The notes beneath the pieces are model-generated. The model was not told the origin of the DNA, did no database searches, and was given only the letters and a program-made list of their open reading frames with translations. From contig CAZLLE010000011.1 of assembly GCA_964560425.1 (NCBI GenBank), positions 17,626 to 81,625 on the forward strand: a stretch of 64,000 nucleotides of DNA, read 5' to 3'. Positions 4,344 to 39,772 of this stretch are shown here, piece by piece. A program made the translations under genes and the position numbers. The stretch comes from an uncultured Campylobacterales bacterium (GTDB taxonomy: Bacteria; Campylobacterota; Campylobacteria; Campylobacterales; QNZT01). Within the stretch, counting starts at the first letter, position 1, and every line of letters starts with the position of its first letter.

Positions 4344-5114
4344 ATGACAAAAACTTCAATTATTTTACTATTATCTACAATCTCAATTTTTGCTAATAGT
4401 GCAAAAGATATTTTTGATTCCAAATGTCTTTCATGTCACTCTCACTATATTGATAAACAAAAACTAAATGAAAATTTTGATAAAAACAACACTATATTAT
4501 CACTCAAAGCACCAACACTAAATCAACTCTCATTTATTCTAAAAGATCAAGTTGGAGATCGAATGATTGACCAAGAGGCTCATCGAATGGAGCTTGAAGA
4601 GTTTATCGAAGAGTATATCAAAAATCCCGATCCCAAAAAGAGTAAAATCACCAAACATATTTATAAATTTTTTAGAGATAGCCCATGTTTTGATGGAAAT
4701 ATAAGTGATGAAGAGATTGAACTGATATCTAACTATATTTATGATTATGGTGAAGAGGTGATTGTCAAACATAGTGTAGAGCGATTTAGTTATGAAGAGG
4801 CTCTCAAAAAAGCTCAAAAAGAGAATAAAATTATTTTGATTGAGGGATTTATACCATATTGTCGAGGTTGCATCAAAATGGATCAAGAGGTTATGGTAAA
4901 TCCAAAAGTCAAAGAGAGACTAAATAAAAATTTTGTTTTTGTCAAAAAAAATGCGATCCTTGAAAAGTTTCCATTAGGAATTAAATCTTTGGGAACTCCA
5001 GCTTTCTACTTTATAGATGCAAATGGTTCAAAAGTGTTAAAAAAGGTACAAGGCACAGGCAATGTAGAGGAATTTTTGGAATTATTAAATTCACTCATCA
5101 AAAAAAAGAGGTAA
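4344..5114 (+). CDS. secreted c-type cytochrome domain fused to a thioredoxin-like (CxxC) domain
   Basis: Signal peptide, a heme site CLSCH near the N-terminus, and a C-terminal thioredoxin-fold-like segment with YCRGC. Confidence 0.6.
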   Translation: MTKTSIILLLSTISIFANSAKDIFDSKCLSCHSHYIDKQKLNENFDKNNTILSLKAPTLNQLSFILKDQVGDRMIDQEAHRMELEEFIEEYIKNPDPKKSKITKHIYKFFRDSPCFDGNISDEEIELISNYIYDYGEEVIVKHSVERFSYEEALKKAQKENKIILIEGFIPYCRGCIKMDQEVMVNPKVKERLNKNFVFVKKNAILEKFPLGIKSLGTPAFYFIDANGSKVLKKVQGTGNVEEFLELLNSLIKKKR

Positions 5115-33760: not shown

Positions 33761-34689
33761 AAATAGCAATAAGTGTTGGCGATCTCAATGGCATAGGTAT
33801 AGAGATTGCATTAAGAGCACATGAAGAGATTTCTAAACTTTGTACACCTATATATGTAATTGATCAAGAGATGTTAAAACAGGCAGTAAAAATTTTGAAT
33901 ATAGAGATACCTCCAAATTTTAATACTCTGCCATGTCATGATATATTTCAAATCACTCCATCTTTGGCAACTAAAGAGAGTGGAACATATAGCTATAACT
34001 CATTTCTTAGAGCCGTAGAGTTGGCAAAAGAGGGAAAAGTTAATGCCATCTCAACACTACCCATAAATAAAGAGGCATGGAATAAAGCAGAAATACTACA
34101 TAAAGGTCACACCGATACATTGACTGATATATTTAACCAAGAGGCAATCATGATGATTGGTTGCCAAAAACTTTTTGTAGCACTATTTACTCATCATATT
34201 CCACTTAAAGATGTAGCTTCACGCATAAAGGCAGAACCTCTTAAAAATTTTATGCTCAATCTATATAAAGAGATCAAAGAGGAGAAGATAGGAGTATTAG
34301 GATTAAACCCTCATGCAGGAGATAATGGTGTCATAGGAGATGAAGAGATAGAGATTCAAAAAGCTATAAAAGAGGCAAATAAAGAGATAGGAAAAGAGAT
34401 CTTCATAGGAACACTTGTACCTGACACAGCATTTACCCCCTCTATGAGAGAGGAGTTTCAATATTTTGTCTGTATGTATCATGACCAAGGACTTATAGCA
34501 GCCAAAGCCCTATATTTTGAAGAGGGGATAAATGTCTCTCTAAATCTTCCAATTATTCGTACCTCTGTAGATCATGGCACAGCTTATGATAAAGCATATA
34601 AAAATCAAAACCCATCTACCAAAAGCTATGTCAATTCGATAAAAGAGGCTATACGACTAATAACAAAGAGAGCCGATGCAGAGTCATAA
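33757..34689 (+). CDS. pdxA: 4-hydroxythreonine-4-phosphate dehydrogenase
   Basis: GDLNGIGIEI, GHTD, GLNPHAGDNG and IRTSVDHGTA motifs. 4-nt overlap with pdxJ. Confidence 0.9.
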   Translation: MKIAISVGDLNGIGIEIALRAHEEISKLCTPIYVIDQEMLKQAVKILNIEIPPNFNTLPCHDIFQITPSLATKESGTYSYNSFLRAVELAKEGKVNAISTLPINKEAWNKAEILHKGHTDTLTDIFNQEAIMMIGCQKLFVALFTHHIPLKDVASRIKAEPLKNFMLNLYKEIKEEKIGVLGLNPHAGDNGVIGDEEIEIQKAIKEANKEIGKEIFIGTLVPDTAFTPSMREEFQYFVCMYHDQGLIAAKALYFEEGINVSLNLPIIRTSVDHGTAYDKAYKNQNPSTKSYVNSIKEAIRLITKRADAES

Positions 34690-35437
34690 AGAGGATAAAA
34701 ATAGCCTAAATCCAGAACTAAATCCAAAATCAACAGATTTTAGTATGTTAGATTATCCTTGTGCATATATTCCGGGAAATAATGTAAGAATGAGCTATAA
34801 ATATATCAAAAAAGCATCTAAACAATTTAACTCCGAAGTGATAAAAAGAGGATGGAGAAGGTTTGGAAACTACTACTTTCACCCTATATGCAATGGATGC
34901 AATGAGTGTAAAAGTATCCGTATAAATGTAAATAATTTCAGACACTCTTCATCACAAAAGCGGACTATTAAAAGAAATATAGATACAAGAATAGTTGTCC
35001 AAAAACCGACACTAACACAATCACATGCTGATCTTTACAATAAATATCACCAATTCAAAAGCCAAAAAGATGGCTGGAAACATAAAGATATTTCAATTTC
35101 AGAGTACAATGAAAATTTTGTTTCAGGAGCCCATAATTTTGGAAAAGAGGTTTTATATATCAGAGATGATAAATTAGTAGGAGTAGATCTAATAGATATT
35201 TTGGACGATGGCATTAGCTCTATATACTTTTTTTATGACCCAAATTATCAAAAAATTTCACTCGGTACTTTTTCTCTTCTGTATCAAATCAAACTAGCCA
35301 AAATATTAGACCTAGAGTGGATATATCTAGGATATTGGGTAGATGGTTGCAAAGCATTTGCATATAAACCAAACTTCAAACCAAATGAGTTTTTAGATGG
35401 TTTTCCCCCACTTGATCAAAAACCAAAGTGGGAATAG
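34676..35437 (+). CDS. bpt: arginyl-tRNA-protein transferase family protein (bacterial Bpt-type aminoacyl transferase)
   Basis: CxYxP...RRxG...CxxCxxC N-domain pattern (CAYIPG, GWRRFGNYYFHPICNGCNEC) and a C-domain with SSIYFFYDP and YLGYW. Confidence 0.8.
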   Translation: MQSHKEDKNSLNPELNPKSTDFSMLDYPCAYIPGNNVRMSYKYIKKASKQFNSEVIKRGWRRFGNYYFHPICNGCNECKSIRINVNNFRHSSSQKRTIKRNIDTRIVVQKPTLTQSHADLYNKYHQFKSQKDGWKHKDISISEYNENFVSGAHNFGKEVLYIRDDKLVGVDLIDILDDGISSIYFFYDPNYQKISLGTFSLLYQIKLAKILDLEWIYLGYWVDGCKAFAYKPNFKPNEFLDGFPPLDQKPKWE

Positions 35438-35438
35438 A

Positions 35439-36260
35439 TCAAAGAATGATAGTTTTATGCGATGTTTTCAAGTTTGGATTGACCATCAAAGAGGTTGAAT
35501 AAACTCCACTTTCCACACATGAAGAGGAGATAACAGTTACAGATTGAGGAGCATCTTTCATACTATTTTTGGAAAAAATATGTGAATGAGTCTCATCTTC
35601 AATCTGATAAAATCTCTCATAAGATGCCGAGGTAGTAAGAGCTTCATCACAAATATCTACAAATAGTTTTTTCTTCTCTCTATCTTCAGGATCAACAATC
35701 CCAACTCTAAATTTTTCTCCATTTGGTTTTTTACCAATAGCATAGATATCTCCACCAAAATTGATAAGAGCCGATCTAATTTTATATTTTTTGATGATAG
35801 AAACAGCTCTATCCACTGCATACTCTTTGACAAAACCACCCAAATCAATCTTGGTATAGGAGTTATCAAAATTAATTTTATCTCTTTTGATTGTAAAATG
35901 TTCACACCCTACAAAAGGCAATAGTTTATCTTTTTGAGTTTGTAAATTTTTTTTTGATAATTTTTGAGTATATAGAGGTTTGAAAGTTGCTACTGTAATA
36001 TCAAATACTTTTTCTGTTTTTTTATAATATTGCTTGGCTCTTTGGAGTAGATTTTTACTCTCACTATCCAAAATAGAGACCTCTCTACTATTGAGTAGAG
36101 ATAAAAAAGAGTCATCTCTATAATAACTATATTTTTTCTCTAATCTCTTAGCCTCTTCAAGCACTAGCTTTGCTATAGCATCAACTTTTGGTTTGCTATT
36201 GTGATAAAGATGAAGCTCACATGGTGTACTCATAGCTTCAAATTTATATATATAGTGCAT
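35439..36260 (-). CDS. apbE: FAD:protein FMN transferase (ApbE family), no signal peptide
   Basis: FEAMSTPCEL, IDLGGFVKEYAVD, ALINFGGDIYAIG, FRVGIVDP, LTTSASYER and SVTVISSSC motifs. An in-frame stop lies two codons upstream of the ATG, so no leader is possible. Confidence 0.85.
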   Translation of the reverse strand: MHYIYKFEAMSTPCELHLYHNSKPKVDAIAKLVLEEAKRLEKKYSYYRDDSFLSLLNSREVSILDSESKNLLQRAKQYYKKTEKVFDITVATFKPLYTQKLSKKNLQTQKDKLLPFVGCEHFTIKRDKINFDNSYTKIDLGGFVKEYAVDRAVSIIKKYKIRSALINFGGDIYAIGKKPNGEKFRVGIVDPEDREKKKLFVDICDEALTTSASYERFYQIEDETHSHIFSKNSMKDAPQSVTVISSSCVESGVYSTSLMVNPNLKTSHKTIIL

Positions 36261-37450
36261 TAAAATTTATATTTTTGTCCAGCAATCATGAGCATTGCTG
36301 TTTTGCCATGCTCTTTATCATATAGAGCAAACATCAAATTTTGACTCAATTTTTTACTAAGATGCTGAGTAACCCCTAGAGAGATTGAAGCAGATCGCAC
36401 ATCTCCAATTCGCCAATCACTAGAAGCATACTTCTCATCTGTAAAATAATCTTTTTTTCCACTATAAAAATCTGCTTTGGATTGGGAGTGATAACGCAAA
36501 GAGCCATCAAAAGTCAATTTATCACTATATTTATAAAATATCTTACTCTCAACAGTATGAGCTGAGATATCCCAACTATCTCTATAATAACGGTAATTTC
36601 CATGCCATACAACATCTTCTCGCAATGCCTTTGCCAAAGATAATTTCACTCCATAACCATTTCTACTATCTGGTCTATTCTCATTTAAAATAATAGGATT
36701 AGTATAATAATCCCTCACTACATTCATATAAGGGTTACTCAATTCACCAGATTCAAAATTTCCAAACAGAGAGATTTTACCAATTGTATTTTTATCAATA
36801 TTTTGAGCATAAGTTATTTGTGTATCAAAAATCTTCTGATAAAAATTTTTACTTCCACCACTTTTGGTATCACAATGAGTATTATTAATACACCACATAT
36901 TTAGTTGAGCATATTGATATGAGGCTGAAAACTCCAAAGAGTTATTTTTATATTTATCCAAGTAGTGCAAATATGAAAATGAAACTTCAGGAATTCTAAA
37001 TTCATGCTCATTTGAAAAAGAGAATCCCATCGAAGCTTCATCTTTATCTACAAACTCTTTTGTAATAGTAACTCCCCCAATATAACGAAGATCACGATAA
37101 TCAACACTACCATGTCCTATATCCTCTTGTGCAAGATGAGAACCACGCCCATAAGCACTAGGAGAGTGTGTACCATGGCTATATGGTGATGCCTCAGTTA
37201 CAGAATCATAAGTTTTATCATAATATGTAGGCGATGCACCACTTACAATATCAGTAAGCAAATTTGCATTTAGTGTATATCCACCACCTATACCCATATT
37301 CAATTCAATAGAAGGAGCAACAACCGTCGCCTCCTCTTCTGTTTCACTATAGTGCATCACCTGAATATTAACATAATCCTCCGCACTTAAAGAAGATGAA
37401 TAAAGAGCAATGATTGCCAAAAGGGAGAGTTTTTTTATCGACATCCACAA
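36260..37450 (-). CDS. DUF3570-type predicted beta-barrel protein carrying a DIVSGAS flavinylation-type motif
   Basis: Signal peptide (LLAIIALYSSSLSA), beta-strand periodicity and a terminal KYKF. The stop overlaps the apbE start (TAATG). The family call is from recall of the DUF4266/DUF3570/ApbE gene neighbourhood. Confidence 0.6.
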   Translation of the reverse strand: MWMSIKKLSLLAIIALYSSSLSAEDYVNIQVMHYSETEEEATVVAPSIELNMGIGGGYTLNANLLTDIVSGASPTYYDKTYDSVTEASPYSHGTHSPSAYGRGSHLAQEDIGHGSVDYRDLRYIGGVTITKEFVDKDEASMGFSFSNEHEFRIPEVSFSYLHYLDKYKNNSLEFSASYQYAQLNMWCINNTHCDTKSGGSKNFYQKIFDTQITYAQNIDKNTIGKISLFGNFESGELSNPYMNVVRDYYTNPIILNENRPDSRNGYGVKLSLAKALREDVVWHGNYRYYRDSWDISAHTVESKIFYKYSDKLTFDGSLRYHSQSKADFYSGKKDYFTDEKYASSDWRIGDVRSASISLGVTQHLSKKLSQNLMFALYDKEHGKTAMLMIAGQKYKF

Positions 37451-37647
37451 CCCCCACCACCAGCTCTCTCTCCACCACGAACAGCCTCTTTGGAGATATA
37501 CATGTGATTGACAAAACCCATAGACAAAGAGTTTTCATTATCAAATTGCATAATACTTTTTGAAAGTTGCTCTTTCTCCCAAGGCTTAACATGCGAGGAA
37601 CAACCAATCAATACAAACAAAAGAGTAAAAACAGATAAAAACTTCAA
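37435..37647 (-). CDS. DUF4266-type small lipoprotein with C-terminal GGGGCGC tail
   Basis: Lipobox LLFVLIGC, 70 aa, C-terminus ...GGERAGGGGCGCR. 16-nt overlap with the next gene. Confidence 0.6.
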   Translation of the reverse strand: MKFLSVFTLLFVLIGCSSHVKPWEKEQLSKSIMQFDNENSLSMGFVNHMYISKEAVRGGERAGGGGCGCR

Positions 37648-37737
37648 AATATCTCCCTTAAAATAGAAAATGATTATATTTATATAAAACTTTAATGTTA
37701 ATTATAGGGATTTTTTTGTTTAGACTTTGCAAATCCA

Positions 37738-37750: not shown

Positions 37751-39772
37751 TTAAAATCTTAATTGAAGATTCAGTTTGAAATAATTTTTTGTTTTATCTT
37801 GAATGATAGTTCCAAATTTATGTCGGGAAGATGATGGAGTATCTAATCTAATATTTTCAAATAGATAATCTTTTAAACTTTCTATATCAATTACATGGAA
37901 TGTAACTAAATCACCACTCTCTTTTACGACTATTGTTCCATTGCTCTCATAAGAACCGTCCCATCTTTTACCTGCAAAAAAGCCTAATAAAATAGCTACA
38001 AGAAATTTTTTCAATTTATCAATCAACATTGATTTATCATCAATATCCAAATCATTTAGGATATCTGTTTTATCACACAGATAATCTATAATATTACTCA
38101 ATTTAGAAATTCTAGCATGATAGAAAGAGAGTAAAAGATAACCTACTATTTGAGGTAAAACACTATCTACCATTTTTAAATTATAATTCATAGTATCTTT
38201 TTCAGCTTTTAGATAGTGAAATTTACCACCATTTTTAATTATAGCTTCTATTCTATCTTTGATTTTAGTTTTAGTAGAGATTTTATTAATTTCAGAAACT
38301 TTGCTATTGTCTAAATCTTCAATTTCAAACATAAAATTACTATTTCCAGAAGCATTGAGTAGAGTTGGTTTACTACCTAAGTATGATTTTATACCAAACC
38401 CCTCATTTTCTCTAACAAATGTGCTATGCTCTATATCAAGAACAATATCTGCTTTTTGAGAACTATTACCACCTTTTATAGCACTAAACCCCAAGGCTGT
38501 TTGAATAATCTCAAAATCACCTATTTCAAAAGTCCCTTTTCCCTCTTTAATTCGATTTAAAATATTCGATATTGATTTATCAGTTATAATTTTACCTATA
38601 TCTATTTTATTTTCTATACCATTTTTTGTATTTACTGATTTAATTGTAAATTCACTCAAAGGAATAAACTCTAAATCTAAATTTTCAGTAGTTATTTTAT
38701 TGACTTTAAAATAATCTCCTGTTGGGTTTAGGTTCTTATCAGATAAGAGTAATTTTTGCTCTAATAATATTTTTACAAATGCGAATAGTTCTGTCCACTC
38801 TCCCTTATTTTTACTCTTTTTCACTATTTTGCCTTTTTTATCAAGATGATTCATATAAGATATAATATTTTTACCCACTTCTCTAACTGCATCAATAGCA
38901 ACACTATTACCTAATTGTTTCATAGCTTGAGTAGCACAAACAGGAAAATGAAAATTATCAGGAAAACCTTGCATTTTTTGTGCCTCTTTAAATGATAACT
39001 TTTTAACCTCCCCATCAACCAAATAAGAGTCCCAATTTCTTCTATCATTAATATTAGAACCCCTACCACCAACACGAAGTGTAAAACCTAACTCTCTACT
39101 ACATTTACCACCCCATACATCACTCATAGTAAATTTCAGAGGCTTTTTAGGTGGAAAAGTGAATCCTTGAAGTATATCTTCATCTCTAAAACCAACCATA
39201 AATGTTCTTGGTCTTAGTTGTGGCAATCCATAATCGGAAGCTTTAATGATTTGATAGTAAAATGAGTAACCTAACTCCTCTGTAAGTATATATTGTATTG
39301 TTTTAAAGGTATTGCCATTGTCATGATTAACTAATCCCCTAACATTCTCTAAAAAAAATGCTTTTGGTTGTTTCACTCTTATTATTTCAGCTATATCAAA
39401 AAATAGGTTTCCTCTTTCAGATTTATGATTATCTTCAAAACCATATTTTTTACCTACTTGACTAAATGGCTGACAAGGAAATCCAGCACATAATAGATCA
39501 AAATCAGGAATTTCTTCAGGCATAATGGTTTTTATATCTTCATGAAAGAGTCCATTTTCAAATAGATTGGGAGAATACTTTTTAAAATTATATTCATAAG
39601 TTTTTCTAGCATTTTTATCAATTTCAGAAGCAAATAGACACTCTCCCCCTAATTCATGCATTGCCTGATGAAAGCCACCAATTCCAGCAAATAGATCTAT
39701 AAAAGTAAAATTTACATTAGAAATATTGTCACCAATTAAATCAAATGATTTTTTTGAAACCTGTTTTGTCAT
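37751..39772 (-). CDS. fused DNA (cytosine-5) methyltransferase / HpaII-family-like restriction endonuclease
   Basis: The N-terminal half has C5-MTase motifs FIDLFAGIGGF (I), GFPCQPFS (IV), ENV (VI), QLRPR (VIII) and QLGNSVA (X). The roughly 340-aa C-terminal half begins KNKGEWTELFAFVKILLEQ, which resembles HpaII-type endonucleases from memory. Confidence 0.6.
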   Translation of the reverse strand: MTKQVSKKSFDLIGDNISNVNFTFIDLFAGIGGFHQAMHELGGECLFASEIDKNARKTYEYNFKKYSPNLFENGLFHEDIKTIMPEEIPDFDLLCAGFPCQPFSQVGKKYGFEDNHKSERGNLFFDIAEIIRVKQPKAFFLENVRGLVNHDNGNTFKTIQYILTEELGYSFYYQIIKASDYGLPQLRPRTFMVGFRDEDILQGFTFPPKKPLKFTMSDVWGGKCSRELGFTLRVGGRGSNINDRRNWDSYLVDGEVKKLSFKEAQKMQGFPDNFHFPVCATQAMKQLGNSVAIDAVREVGKNIISYMNHLDKKGKIVKKSKNKGEWTELFAFVKILLEQKLLLSDKNLNPTGDYFKVNKITTENLDLEFIPLSEFTIKSVNTKNGIENKIDIGKIITDKSISNILNRIKEGKGTFEIGDFEIIQTALGFSAIKGGNSSQKADIVLDIEHSTFVRENEGFGIKSYLGSKPTLLNASGNSNFMFEIEDLDNSKVSEINKISTKTKIKDRIEAIIKNGGKFHYLKAEKDTMNYNLKMVDSVLPQIVGYLLLSFYHARISKLSNIIDYLCDKTDILNDLDIDDKSMLIDKLKKFLVAILLGFFAGKRWDGSYESNGTIVVKESGDLVTFHVIDIESLKDYLFENIRLDTPSSSRHKFGTIIQDKTKNYFKLNLQLRF

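Follow-up and report, generated by a model that had tools for sequence, protein, structure and literature searches.

A three-gene ApbE/DUF3570/DUF4266 operon of an uncultured Campylobacterales bacterium as a probable minimal member of a known flavinylation cluster

Gene clusters combining ApbE with DUF3570, a thioredoxin-like protein and a DUF4266 protein carrying a CXC motif, with or without DsbD, were described by Méheust et al. (2021, eLife 10:e66878, PMC8238504), who came upon DUF3570 via genomes in which ApbE lacked any other substrate. In the example tested, from Chlorobium luteolum (ABB24424.1/ABB24423.1), the DUF3570 protein gave a UV-fluorescent signal on SDS-PAGE only if its cognate ApbE was expressed alongside it, and this signal was lost only after both [S/T]GA[S/T] serines had been mutated (PMC8238504). 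ApbE acts on a linear tag of seven residues, and its conserved catalytic residues are Ser241, His257 and Asp285 in V. cholerae numbering (2025 review, PMC12052999). Canonical periplasmic members of the family (ApbE, Ftp and FmnB) are known from V. cholerae (6nxi), E. coli (4xgw), T. pallidum (4xdt) and Listeria (7esa), and a cytosolic ApbE from Klebsiella pneumoniae flavinylates a soluble fumarate reductase (PMC12052999).

The 64-kb stretch of DNA analysed here, referred to as the window, contains the same three Pfam families in one operon. Three overlapping genes on the minus strand, lying behind one promoter-like site, encode a DUF4266 lipoprotein of 70 aa (37435-37647; PF14086, E=2.7e-16), a DUF3570 barrel protein (36260-37450; PF12094, E=1.2e-46) and an ApbE-family FAD:protein FMN transferase homologue of 273 aa (35439-36260; PF02424, E=2.7e-53). 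A first-pass annotation had named these three families and described the genes as coupled, and both statements were borne out by the Pfam profile search and by the positions of the open reading frames, including the TAATG shared by the DUF3570 stop and the apbE start (36258-36262). It had further given the overlap between the DUF4266 and DUF3570 genes as 16 nt (37435-37450), which holds for a DUF3570 start at TTG 37450 (396 aa), but not for the ATG at 37444, which corresponds to the recorded protein of 394 aa (P0122) and leaves 10 nt; the two genes overlap under either start choice. The DUF4266 gene starts with TTG (37647), preceded by a Shine-Dalgarno-like AAGGGAG, and just upstream lies the promoter-like site TTAACA-17-TATAAT (37673-37701, minus strand, read 37701-37673), a consensus match only, with 11 of 12 matching positions and the top score of the promoter scan. 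Two terminator-like matches inside genes were regarded as chance.

As in the cluster of Méheust et al., the DUF3570 protein is secreted and carries [S/T]GA[S/T], and the DUF4266 protein ends in CXC. In contrast to that cluster, neither a thioredoxin-like gene (PF13899) nor DsbD (PF02683) is present in the three-gene operon, the ApbE lacks a signal peptide and carries a Gly at the position of Asp285, and the second common motif of DUF3570 is degenerate while an extra third motif is accompanied by a Cys pair. The best explanation of the whole operon is that it belongs, in a minimal form of three genes, to the published flavinylation cluster of ApbE, DUF3570 and DUF4266, an assignment that we regard as probable.

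The DUF3570 protein matched PF12094 with 159.8 bits (cut-off 25), residues 20-391 covering profile positions 27-414 of 427. Its predicted signal peptide (residues 1-23, 37382-37450) ends in ...SSLSA before EDY; those of the homologues end in A-x-A, followed by [EQ]DY. The C-terminus reads ...KYKF, with an aromatic last residue. An AlphaFold2 model (pLDDT 84.7, pTM 0.81) displayed 16 strands, and the best 50 matches listed by Foldseek in the PDB were all outer-membrane barrels, such as PelB (TM 0.54) and BcsC (TM 0.53). Signal peptide, even strand number, C-terminal aromatic residue and fold similarity of the model all point to the outer membrane, and we are confident in predicting a 16-strand outer-membrane barrel, the type of fold that the annotation had suggested. 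Its topology was deduced from the secondary structure together with rules for outer-membrane proteins. Under this topology, conservation reached 0.63-0.82 in the outward loops L4-L7 versus 0.32-0.47 in the periplasmic turns T4-T7.

The pattern D..[ST]G[AG][ST] was found twice among the 150 open reading frames of the window with at least 50 aa (26,025 residues), both times in the DUF3570 protein. The canonical site A, D67-I-V-S-G-A-S73 (37232-37252), shows invariant D67 and G71 in 121/121 aligned sequences, its acceptor position 73 being Ser in 119 and Thr in 2; this conservation and the specificity within the window rule out a chance occurrence. Site B, D82-S-V-T-E-A-S88 (37187-37207), corresponds, in degenerate form, to the second of the widely conserved motifs, which reads [ST]-G-A-[ST] in homologues and keeps its Gly in 115/121, the Gly being replaced by E, K or L in our sequence and its two closest relatives. 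Site C is preceded by a Cys pair, C187-x5-C193-D194-T-K-S-G-G-S200 (36851-36892), and is restricted to closer Campylobacterota relatives; C187 is conserved in 118/121, C193 in 112/121, and D194 and S200 in 121/121 sequences. Its Ala position is Gly solely in the clade of our sequence, all three members of which keep SGGS. The motif tally of the protein is one canonical (SGAS, 70-73), one variant (SGGS) and one degenerate copy (TEAS). The annotation had recognised the conserved DIVSGAS at residues 67-73 but missed DTKSGGS (194-200) and the degenerate DSVTEAS (82-88).

The model also bears on the question, raised in the annotation, of where Ser73 lies: site A falls within the long strand beta3, in its outer half and in polar register. 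Site B falls in the low-confidence loop L2, and site C in L4, reaching into the start of beta8. Since standard topology places termini and short turns in the periplasm and long loops outside, we infer that every motif site of the modelled barrel is on the outward side, that of the long loops. Ser73 is the predicted acceptor to which FMN would be linked as a phosphoester; FMN is probably also carried by Ser200, and probably not by Ser88. These acceptors are Ser, unlike the Thr preferred in canonical ApbE/Ftp/FmnB systems. That the adjacent ApbE flavinylates the DUF3570 protein, the central idea of the first-pass annotation, is supported but was already established in 2021; it was demonstrated for the C. 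luteolum homologue (PMC8238504) and would apply here by analogy. The accompanying remark that the partner families have no assigned function, and with it the novelty of the idea, fell because the 2021 paper had been overlooked (PMC8238504). In this respect, the locus mainly confirms that real biology can be rediscovered from sequence alone.

The ApbE homologue revealed a less expected picture. Its homology to the canonical enzymes is nearly full-domain, PDB homologues of the ApbE/FmnB type matching at E=4e-18 to 1e-12 (7esa, 1vrm, 6nxi and 4xgw at 4e-18 to 3e-13), while its score against the NCBIfam equivalog PRK10461 (69.6 bits) is far below the cut-off of 498, so that it is not an E. coli-type equivalog. 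The codons before its start read TAA-ATT-TTA-ATG in frame, and because of this in-frame stop just upstream of the ATG the protein cannot be extended N-terminally. The N-terminus reads MHYIYKFEA-MSTPCE, relatives are conserved from the first Met, and position 1 of the PF02424 profile aligns to residue 10, with nine non-hydrophobic residues preceding the domain. A mis-called start is ruled out by the in-frame stop, the conserved Met1 N-terminus and the same pattern in 36-37 loci, and the earlier observation that there is no room for a signal peptide stands. Alignment to V. cholerae ApbE (6nxi) pairs S211 with Ser241 and H227 with His257 but sets G252 (35505-35507) opposite Asp285, so that two of the three conserved catalytic residues are retained; the equivalent of FmnB Arg262 and the GG/GGD motifs of the FAD pocket are kept as well. 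Ser241, His257 and the FAD-pocket motifs are thus common to this enzyme and the canonical ones, whereas the exchange of Asp285 for Gly, the change of KGY to KEY, the missing lipoprotein signal and an N-terminal M-[ST]-[ST]-P-C-E, conserved in most of its signal-less relatives, set it apart.

These relatives, referred to here as type-II ApbEs and found in 36-37 related loci, have no signal peptide and a Gly at the Asp285 position in every one. Because of the exchange of the Asp, the linked ApbE may be inactive or may work differently. It shares the missing signal peptide with the cytosolic ApbE of K. pneumoniae, whose substrate is cytosolic, whereas the only plausible substrate here is destined for the outer membrane. 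We found no discussion in the literature consulted of a signal-less, Asp-less ApbE paired with an exported substrate.

The DUF4266 protein carries the lipobox LIGC with Cys16 (37600-37602) and a Gly-rich tail ending in GGGGCGCR, with C67-G-C69-R at 37438-37449, which agrees with the annotated 70-aa lipoprotein. All 73 small DUF4266 homologues of related loci have a C-x-C-x end, which is CGC in 72, and none of the 73 shows an Asp at lipobox position +2. Natural fusions of thioredoxin with DUF4266 occur in three loci (L035, L050 and L071). Erv2 offers a precedent for a C-terminal CXC whose shuttle disulfide feeds a flavin (PMC4019985).

Among 84 related loci, DUF3570 and DUF4266 were present in 81 each, DUF4266 being encoded next to DUF3570, and ApbE in 65. 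Type-II ApbE co-occurs with an [ST]-G-x-[ST] site A in 36/36 loci. Several Campylobacterota loci encode DUF4266 and DUF3570 as a pair with no ApbE beside it, and some loci lacking an adjacent ApbE retain all three motifs. In most related loci the gene directly upstream codes for a secreted TlpA-like protein, and the partner thioredoxins of type-II loci are of TlpA/Redoxin type, not PF13899. In the window, Pfam annotation of 56 of the larger open reading frames gave no DsbD, CcdA, FMN_bind, Nqr, Rnf or NosR, a BLAST search with the dihaem cytochromes of related loci gave no match, and there is no second ApbE; a recurrent DsbD was likewise missing among the 84 related loci. An HMM of the cluster-linked thioredoxins gave a single weak match in the window (ORF 4344-5114, E=1e-7), a fusion of cytochrome c and Thioredoxin_7 that lies 30 kb from the operon and holds the sole thioredoxin-like domain of the window, and it was rejected as a partner since the match is too weak and the distance too great. 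Being missing from the operon, the thioredoxin-like donor would have to be encoded elsewhere in the genome.

In MtrCAB-type porin-cytochrome conduits, an outer-membrane barrel and a redox partner move electrons across the outer membrane. The locus described here resembles them in that an outer-membrane barrel is paired with a redox partner that is periplasmic or a lipoprotein, its conduction being only proposed, but MtrCAB has 26 strands and haems, whereas the DUF3570 model has 16 strands and no haems, and the barrel itself would bear the cofactor. Another parallel is offered by the ERV/ALR and QSOX sulfhydryl oxidases, which work on the same principle with a thioredoxin-type partner, a CXC in a flexible terminal tail, and a flavin that has a Cys pair close to it (PMC4019985). 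They show no homology to the proteins of this locus, however, whose parts are separate proteins with a predicted covalent FMN on an outer-membrane barrel.

The puzzle of the locus is a predicted cytosolic, Asp-less ApbE whose sole evident substrate is an exported barrel with outward sites. With the sites on the outward half, the folded barrel would be out of reach of a periplasmic enzyme, and recognition of a linear tag by a cytosolic ApbE makes flavinylation most likely on the unfolded chain in the cytoplasm. The proposed order is cytoplasmic flavinylation, then Sec export and then insertion by BAM, after which Ser73 would sit in a lumen-facing register of the barrel. DUF4266, as an outer-membrane lipoprotein, would serve as a thiol/disulfide shuttle by means of its CGC tail, which is flexible and rich in Gly, and carry electrons between thioredoxin-type proteins of the periplasm and the barrel flavins, the C187/C193 pair beside site C possibly relaying electrons here. 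The barrel could in this way couple the thiol redox chemistry of the periplasm to a cell-surface acceptor, for which iron is one candidate, electrons likely moving outward. Type-II ApbE may represent a distinct cytosolic subtype that flavinylates a Sec pre-protein, from which SecYEG and BAM would yield a barrel with flavins in the outward vestibule, fed by the CGC of DUF4266; we offer this as a tentative possibility. We found no precedent in the literature consulted for SecYEG export of an FMN-bearing chain. If the proposal is true, electrons would have a haem-free flavin/thiol path through the outer membrane, and flavoproteins a 'modify first, export later' route. Solving the puzzle would show where and when flavinylation occurs, whether Sec and BAM handle a flavin-bearing chain, and whether bacteria own a flavin-based counterpart of porin-cytochrome conduits.

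The missing Asp allows another division of labour, in which the linked ApbE does not modify DUF3570 but is a cytosolic flavin or FAD helper or serves another target, while a canonical periplasmic ApbE encoded elsewhere flavinylates the unfolded precursor. Asp285 belongs, with Ser241 and His257, to the conserved catalytic residues (PMC12052999), its replacement by Gly and the lack of a signal peptide extend to all 36-37 type-II enzymes, and a cytosolic ApbE failed to complement in Salmonella, as noted in a review; loci in which all three motifs persist although no ApbE is adjacent fit this reading too. Against this stand the translational coupling of apbE and DUF3570 through TAATG, the strict co-inheritance of type-II ApbE with site A, the retained equivalents of Ser241, His257 and Arg262 together with the FAD-pocket motifs, the lack of a second ApbE in the 64-kb window, and the discovery of DUF3570 in genomes that offered their ApbE no other substrate (PMC8238504). 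On balance, we consider a separate modifying enzyme unlikely. Even less probable, indeed very unlikely, is a decay or repurposing of the system in this lineage, by which the barrel would mainly be a channel or structural protein and its remaining motifs unflavinylated. The site B Gly is lost to three different residues in three close relatives, site C is a rare SGGS variant, thioredoxin and cytochrome partners are missing, and some DUF3570 homologues gave weak Pfam matches to FadL, porin and TonB barrel families. Site A is fully canonical, however, the three open reading frames are intact and coupled, ApbE and DUF4266 have the same lengths as in relatives, and SGGS is maintained throughout its clade. 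Motif changes from Gly to Ala and from Ala to Val still leave about 50% flavinylation (PMC12052999), SGGS being an Ala-to-Gly and hence a different change.

If the barrel is flavinylated, the relay could also serve oxidation, periplasmic dithiols passing electrons through a thioredoxin-like protein and the DUF4266 CGC to the Cys pair and FMN, and from there to O2 or an external acceptor, so that disulfides are made instead of reducing equivalents being sent out from DsbD. The layout parallels ERV/ALR and QSOX, with a terminal CXC and the flavin-proximal pair C187/C193 near S200, but this pair is limited to part of the Campylobacterota. The thioredoxins that accompany type-II ApbEs also speak against an oxidising role, as TlpA/Redoxin-type thioredoxins in characterised systems are reductants fed by CcdA or DsbD. 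The distribution of DsbD points both ways: it is neither recurrent in the 84 loci nor present in the window, and 316 published clusters are without it, yet it is co-localised in 227 others (PMC8238504). We regard the oxidising relay as conceivable but rather doubtful.

Returning to the cytosolic subtype proposed for type-II ApbE, about two thirds of the DUF3570-linked ApbEs in our sample are predicted to be cytosolic and are without the catalytic Asp. The Asp/Gly residue of ApbE and a Ser/Gly residue of site A covary perfectly (27 vs 36 loci), which we did not count as independent co-evolution because it reflects one deep split between two cluster types. The proposed cytosolic ApbE subtype linked to DUF3570 would be that of Campylobacterota, Proteobacteria and Acidobacteria.

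The three minus-strand genes that the first-pass annotation had described as coupled were recovered at 37435-37647, 36260-37450 and 35439-36260, and Pfam profile searches confirmed their families as DUF4266 (PF14086, E=2.7e-16), DUF3570 (PF12094, E=1.2e-46) and the flavin transferase ApbE (PF02424, E=2.7e-53), respectively. The best-scoring promoter-like site in our scan, TTAACA-17-TATAAT (37701-37673, minus strand), lies directly 5' of the DUF4266 gene. The 16-nt overlap claimed for DUF4266 and DUF3570 holds only from the TTG at 37450; the ATG at 37444 gives 10 nt, and the 394-aa record of the same DUF3570 protein (P0122) agrees with the ATG start. The TAATG junction of DUF3570 and ApbE was found as described, as was the GGGGCGCR tail of DUF4266, which also has a lipobox (LIGC). 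DUF3570 has a signal peptide ending in SSLSA, followed by EDY, and a C-terminal KYKF. ApbE begins with MHYIYKFEA-MSTPCE, and position 1 of the Pfam profile matches residue 10. The codons leading to its start read TAA-ATT-TTA-ATG, and this in-frame stop makes an N-terminal extension impossible, so ApbE indeed has no space for a signal peptide. The ApbE gene and a convergent arginyl/leucyl-tRNA-protein transferase homologue (ATE_N/ATE_C, 34676-35437, plus strand) stop one base apart (35435-35441), leaving no space for a terminator between them.

The central proposal of the first-pass annotation, that DUF3570 is an ApbE substrate, is correct, but has been public at abstract level since 2021. Méheust et al. 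(eLife, PMC8238504) reported that 'orphan' apbE genes cluster with DUF3570, identified two conserved [S/T]GA[S/T] motifs in DUF3570, and showed that the C. luteolum homologue is flavinylated on co-expression with its cognate ApbE, the signal being abolished only when both serines were changed to alanine. The tested proteins were cloned without signal peptides; DUF3570 received its flavin in the cytoplasm of E. coli and was obtained from inclusion bodies. In their typical cluster, ApbE and DUF3570 are accompanied by DUF4266 and a thioredoxin-like protein of family PF13899; DsbD was part of the cluster in 227 cases and missing from 316, and the VIT1 iron transporter occurs in 25 clusters. Our locus is a minimal further member of this system. 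What remains of interest is a signal-less ApbE lacking a catalytic Asp, together with an exported barrel that has its predicted flavin sites on the outward side, a combination for which we found no discussion in the papers we consulted.

The pattern D..[ST]G[AG][ST] has two matches in the 26,025 residues of the window ORFs, both within DUF3570, and aligning this protein with 120 homologues (mostly Campylobacterota, 36-93% identity) made three motif positions visible. Site A, D67-x-x-S-G-A-S73-P-T-Y-Y-D, is the DIVSGAS already noticed at residues 67-73; its D and G are invariant in all 121 sequences. Site B (residues 82-88) follows shortly after and reads [ST]-G-A-[ST] in homologues, with Gly in 115 of 121, while the query has T-E-A-S, a 93% relative T-K-A-S and an 85% relative T-L-A-S. 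That such close sequences each have a different residue here points to a loss of constraint. Site C, C187-x5-C193-D194-x-x-S-G-A-S200, is present in the query clade as a rare SGGS variant, and together with its Cys pair it is limited to closer Campylobacterota relatives, some of which carry a poly-Asp tract in place of the cysteines. The widespread pair is A and B (80 loci, many phyla), which are probably the two sites of Méheust et al. As the motif is a linear tag of 7 residues, and changes of Gly to Ala or Ala to Val still allow about 50% flavinylation (2025 ApbE review, PMC12052999), we expect Ser73 to carry FMN, Ser200 probably to do so as well, and Ser88 probably not. Tracts of 5-19 Asp residues in a row adjoin the motifs in loop L4 at five of the related loci (L017, L018, L019, L020 and L024) and in the homologous proteins P0060 and P0116, either replacing the Cys pair or separating site A from site B, and cation binding close to the flavin is a possible role for them. 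Instead of such a tract, the window DUF3570 has a His-rich loop L2 (SHGTHSPSAYGRGSHLAQEDIGHG).

The barrel reading of DUF3570 was supported by an AlphaFold2 model built from a 33-sequence alignment (pLDDT 84.7, pTM 0.81), which has 16 strands. All listed Foldseek PDB matches were outer-membrane barrels, the best being the 16-strand PelB (TM 0.54) and BcsC (0.53), followed by FadL, TodX, OccD and AlgE. Seven connections are short (2-6 residues), and the four long ones all fall in the alternate set: L2 (78-109), L4 (186-198), L5 (235-260) and L7 (323-349; model numbering, ORF residue minus 1). In outer-membrane proteins the termini and short turns are periplasmic, and this rule puts the long loops on the outward side. 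Site A then belongs to the outer half of beta3, a strand of 21 residues, where it falls in the polar register; site B lies in L2, and the Cys pair with site C in L4 and the beginning of beta8, all side-chain orientations being predictions. Conservation is higher in loops L4-L7 (0.63-0.82) than in turns T4-T7 (0.32-0.47), which suggests a structured, functional cap; outward loops that are better conserved than periplasmic turns are unusual among outer-membrane proteins. This architecture is not described in Méheust et al. (PMC8238504) or the 2024 mSystems follow-up (PMC11334425).

DUF3570-linked ApbEs fall into two types. Type I (27 loci, mainly Bacteroidota) has a KGY motif, Asp at the position of V. 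cholerae Asp285, a hydrophobic signal peptide in 19 of 27, and a DUF3570 site A of the form [ST]-[SA]-A-S. Type II (36-37 loci including the window; Campylobacterota, Proteobacteria, Acidobacteria-like, Nitrospinota) has KEY, Gly instead of Asp (35505-35507 in the window), no signal peptide, and site A as [ST]-G-x-[ST] (window residue at 37238-37240). In the alignment to V. cholerae ApbE (6nxi), S211, H227 and G252 correspond to Ser241, His257 and Asp285, exactly the three that the 2025 review names as conserved catalytic residues (PMC12052999). Most type II proteins carry M-[ST]-[ST]-P-C-E near the N-terminus (window residues 10-14, 36219-36233), with a conserved Cys in the place of the MGT motif of canonical ApbEs. 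The Asp/Gly difference splits perfectly with the site A residue in 63 of the compared loci (L001-L083; 27 Asp, 36 Gly), and it also follows gene order, thioredoxin type and signal-peptide presence; it is, however, one deep phylogenetic division and hence not independent evidence of co-evolution. The C. luteolum system is probably, if on a weak inference, type I, since the cluster description of Méheust et al. includes PF13899 and signal peptides were removed in cloning (PMC8238504).

Clustering of ORFs from 84 loci found DUF3570 in 81, DUF4266 in 81 and ApbE in 65. Most Campylobacterota and proteobacterial loci encode a secreted TlpA/Redoxin-type thioredoxin (FFASWCxSCKKE) immediately 5' of DUF4266, and Bacteroidota have a PF13899 thioredoxin in the order Trx-ApbE-DUF4266-DUF3570. 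At three loci (L035, 6061-6951; L050, 2719-3426; L071, 368-1135) a WCxxC thioredoxin domain is naturally fused to a DUF4266 domain ending in GGGCGCN, which supports a direct relay from thioredoxin to CGC. Ten loci from Campylobacterota and Aquificae (L007, 4318-6303; L009, 100-1509; L010, 4475-6355; L013, L014, L015, L026, L041, L052 and L080) carry a dihaem c-type cytochrome lipoprotein with two CxxCH motifs and no Pfam match, directly preceding the thioredoxin-DUF4266-DUF3570-ApbE genes. Both this cytochrome and the cluster thioredoxin are missing from the window and its closest clade, and a 49% relative has the DUF4266-DUF3570 pair only. Pfam found no DsbD, CcdA, TlpA, FMN_bind, Nqr, Rnf or NosR among 56 of the larger window ORFs. 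A secreted 256-aa protein (4344-5114, plus strand), 30 kb from the operon, contains both a c-type haem motif (CLSCH) and a Thioredoxin_7 domain bearing CRGC, of the PF13899 family listed for DUF3570 clusters (PMC8238504), but is only weakly similar to cluster-linked thioredoxins (E about 1e-5 to 1e-7).

With operon, families, motifs, export signals, barrel model and flavinylation of a homologue established, we propose that the DUF3570 chain would be modified while unfolded, because its acceptor sites are on the outward side and a linear tag is all that ApbE requires. Flavinylation most likely precedes Sec export, with cytosolic ApbE using cytoplasmic FAD, consistent with the cytoplasmic modification and inclusion-body recovery in E. 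coli (PMC8238504). The 2025 review describes cytosolic ApbEs for cytosolic substrates only (PMC12052999). It is conceivable, if unlikely, that a periplasmic ApbE from another locus modifies DUF3570 and that the type II protein has no part as the transferase. The window lineage has a divergent site B and retains site A; a flavinylation system in decay there strikes us as very improbable.

DUF4266 probably has its anchor in the outer membrane, as Asp is missing at lipobox +2, and its Gly-rich CGC tail, which resembles the C-terminal CXC of Erv2 (PMC4019985), would serve as a shuttle disulfide that connects the flavins with periplasmic thioredoxins, with C187/C193 as a possible flavin-proximal disulfide. 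The TlpA- and DsbD-type partners favour outward reducing flow as the putative direction, and metal reduction is a candidate reaction, hinted at by the VIT1 link and by the loops rich in His or poly-Asp. A relay in the oxidising, sulfhydryl-oxidase direction is compatible with family membership, and we regard it as the less probable direction, though a serious one.

Between the operon and a CitMHS/ArsB transporter gene lies one 673-aa ORF (37751-39772, minus strand) in which a C-5 cytosine DNA methylase (PF00145) is joined to an HpaII-type restriction endonuclease (PF09561). The closest relative, L001 (93%), has the three-gene operon and flanks as in the window but lacks this ORF, which therefore appears to have been inserted recently.
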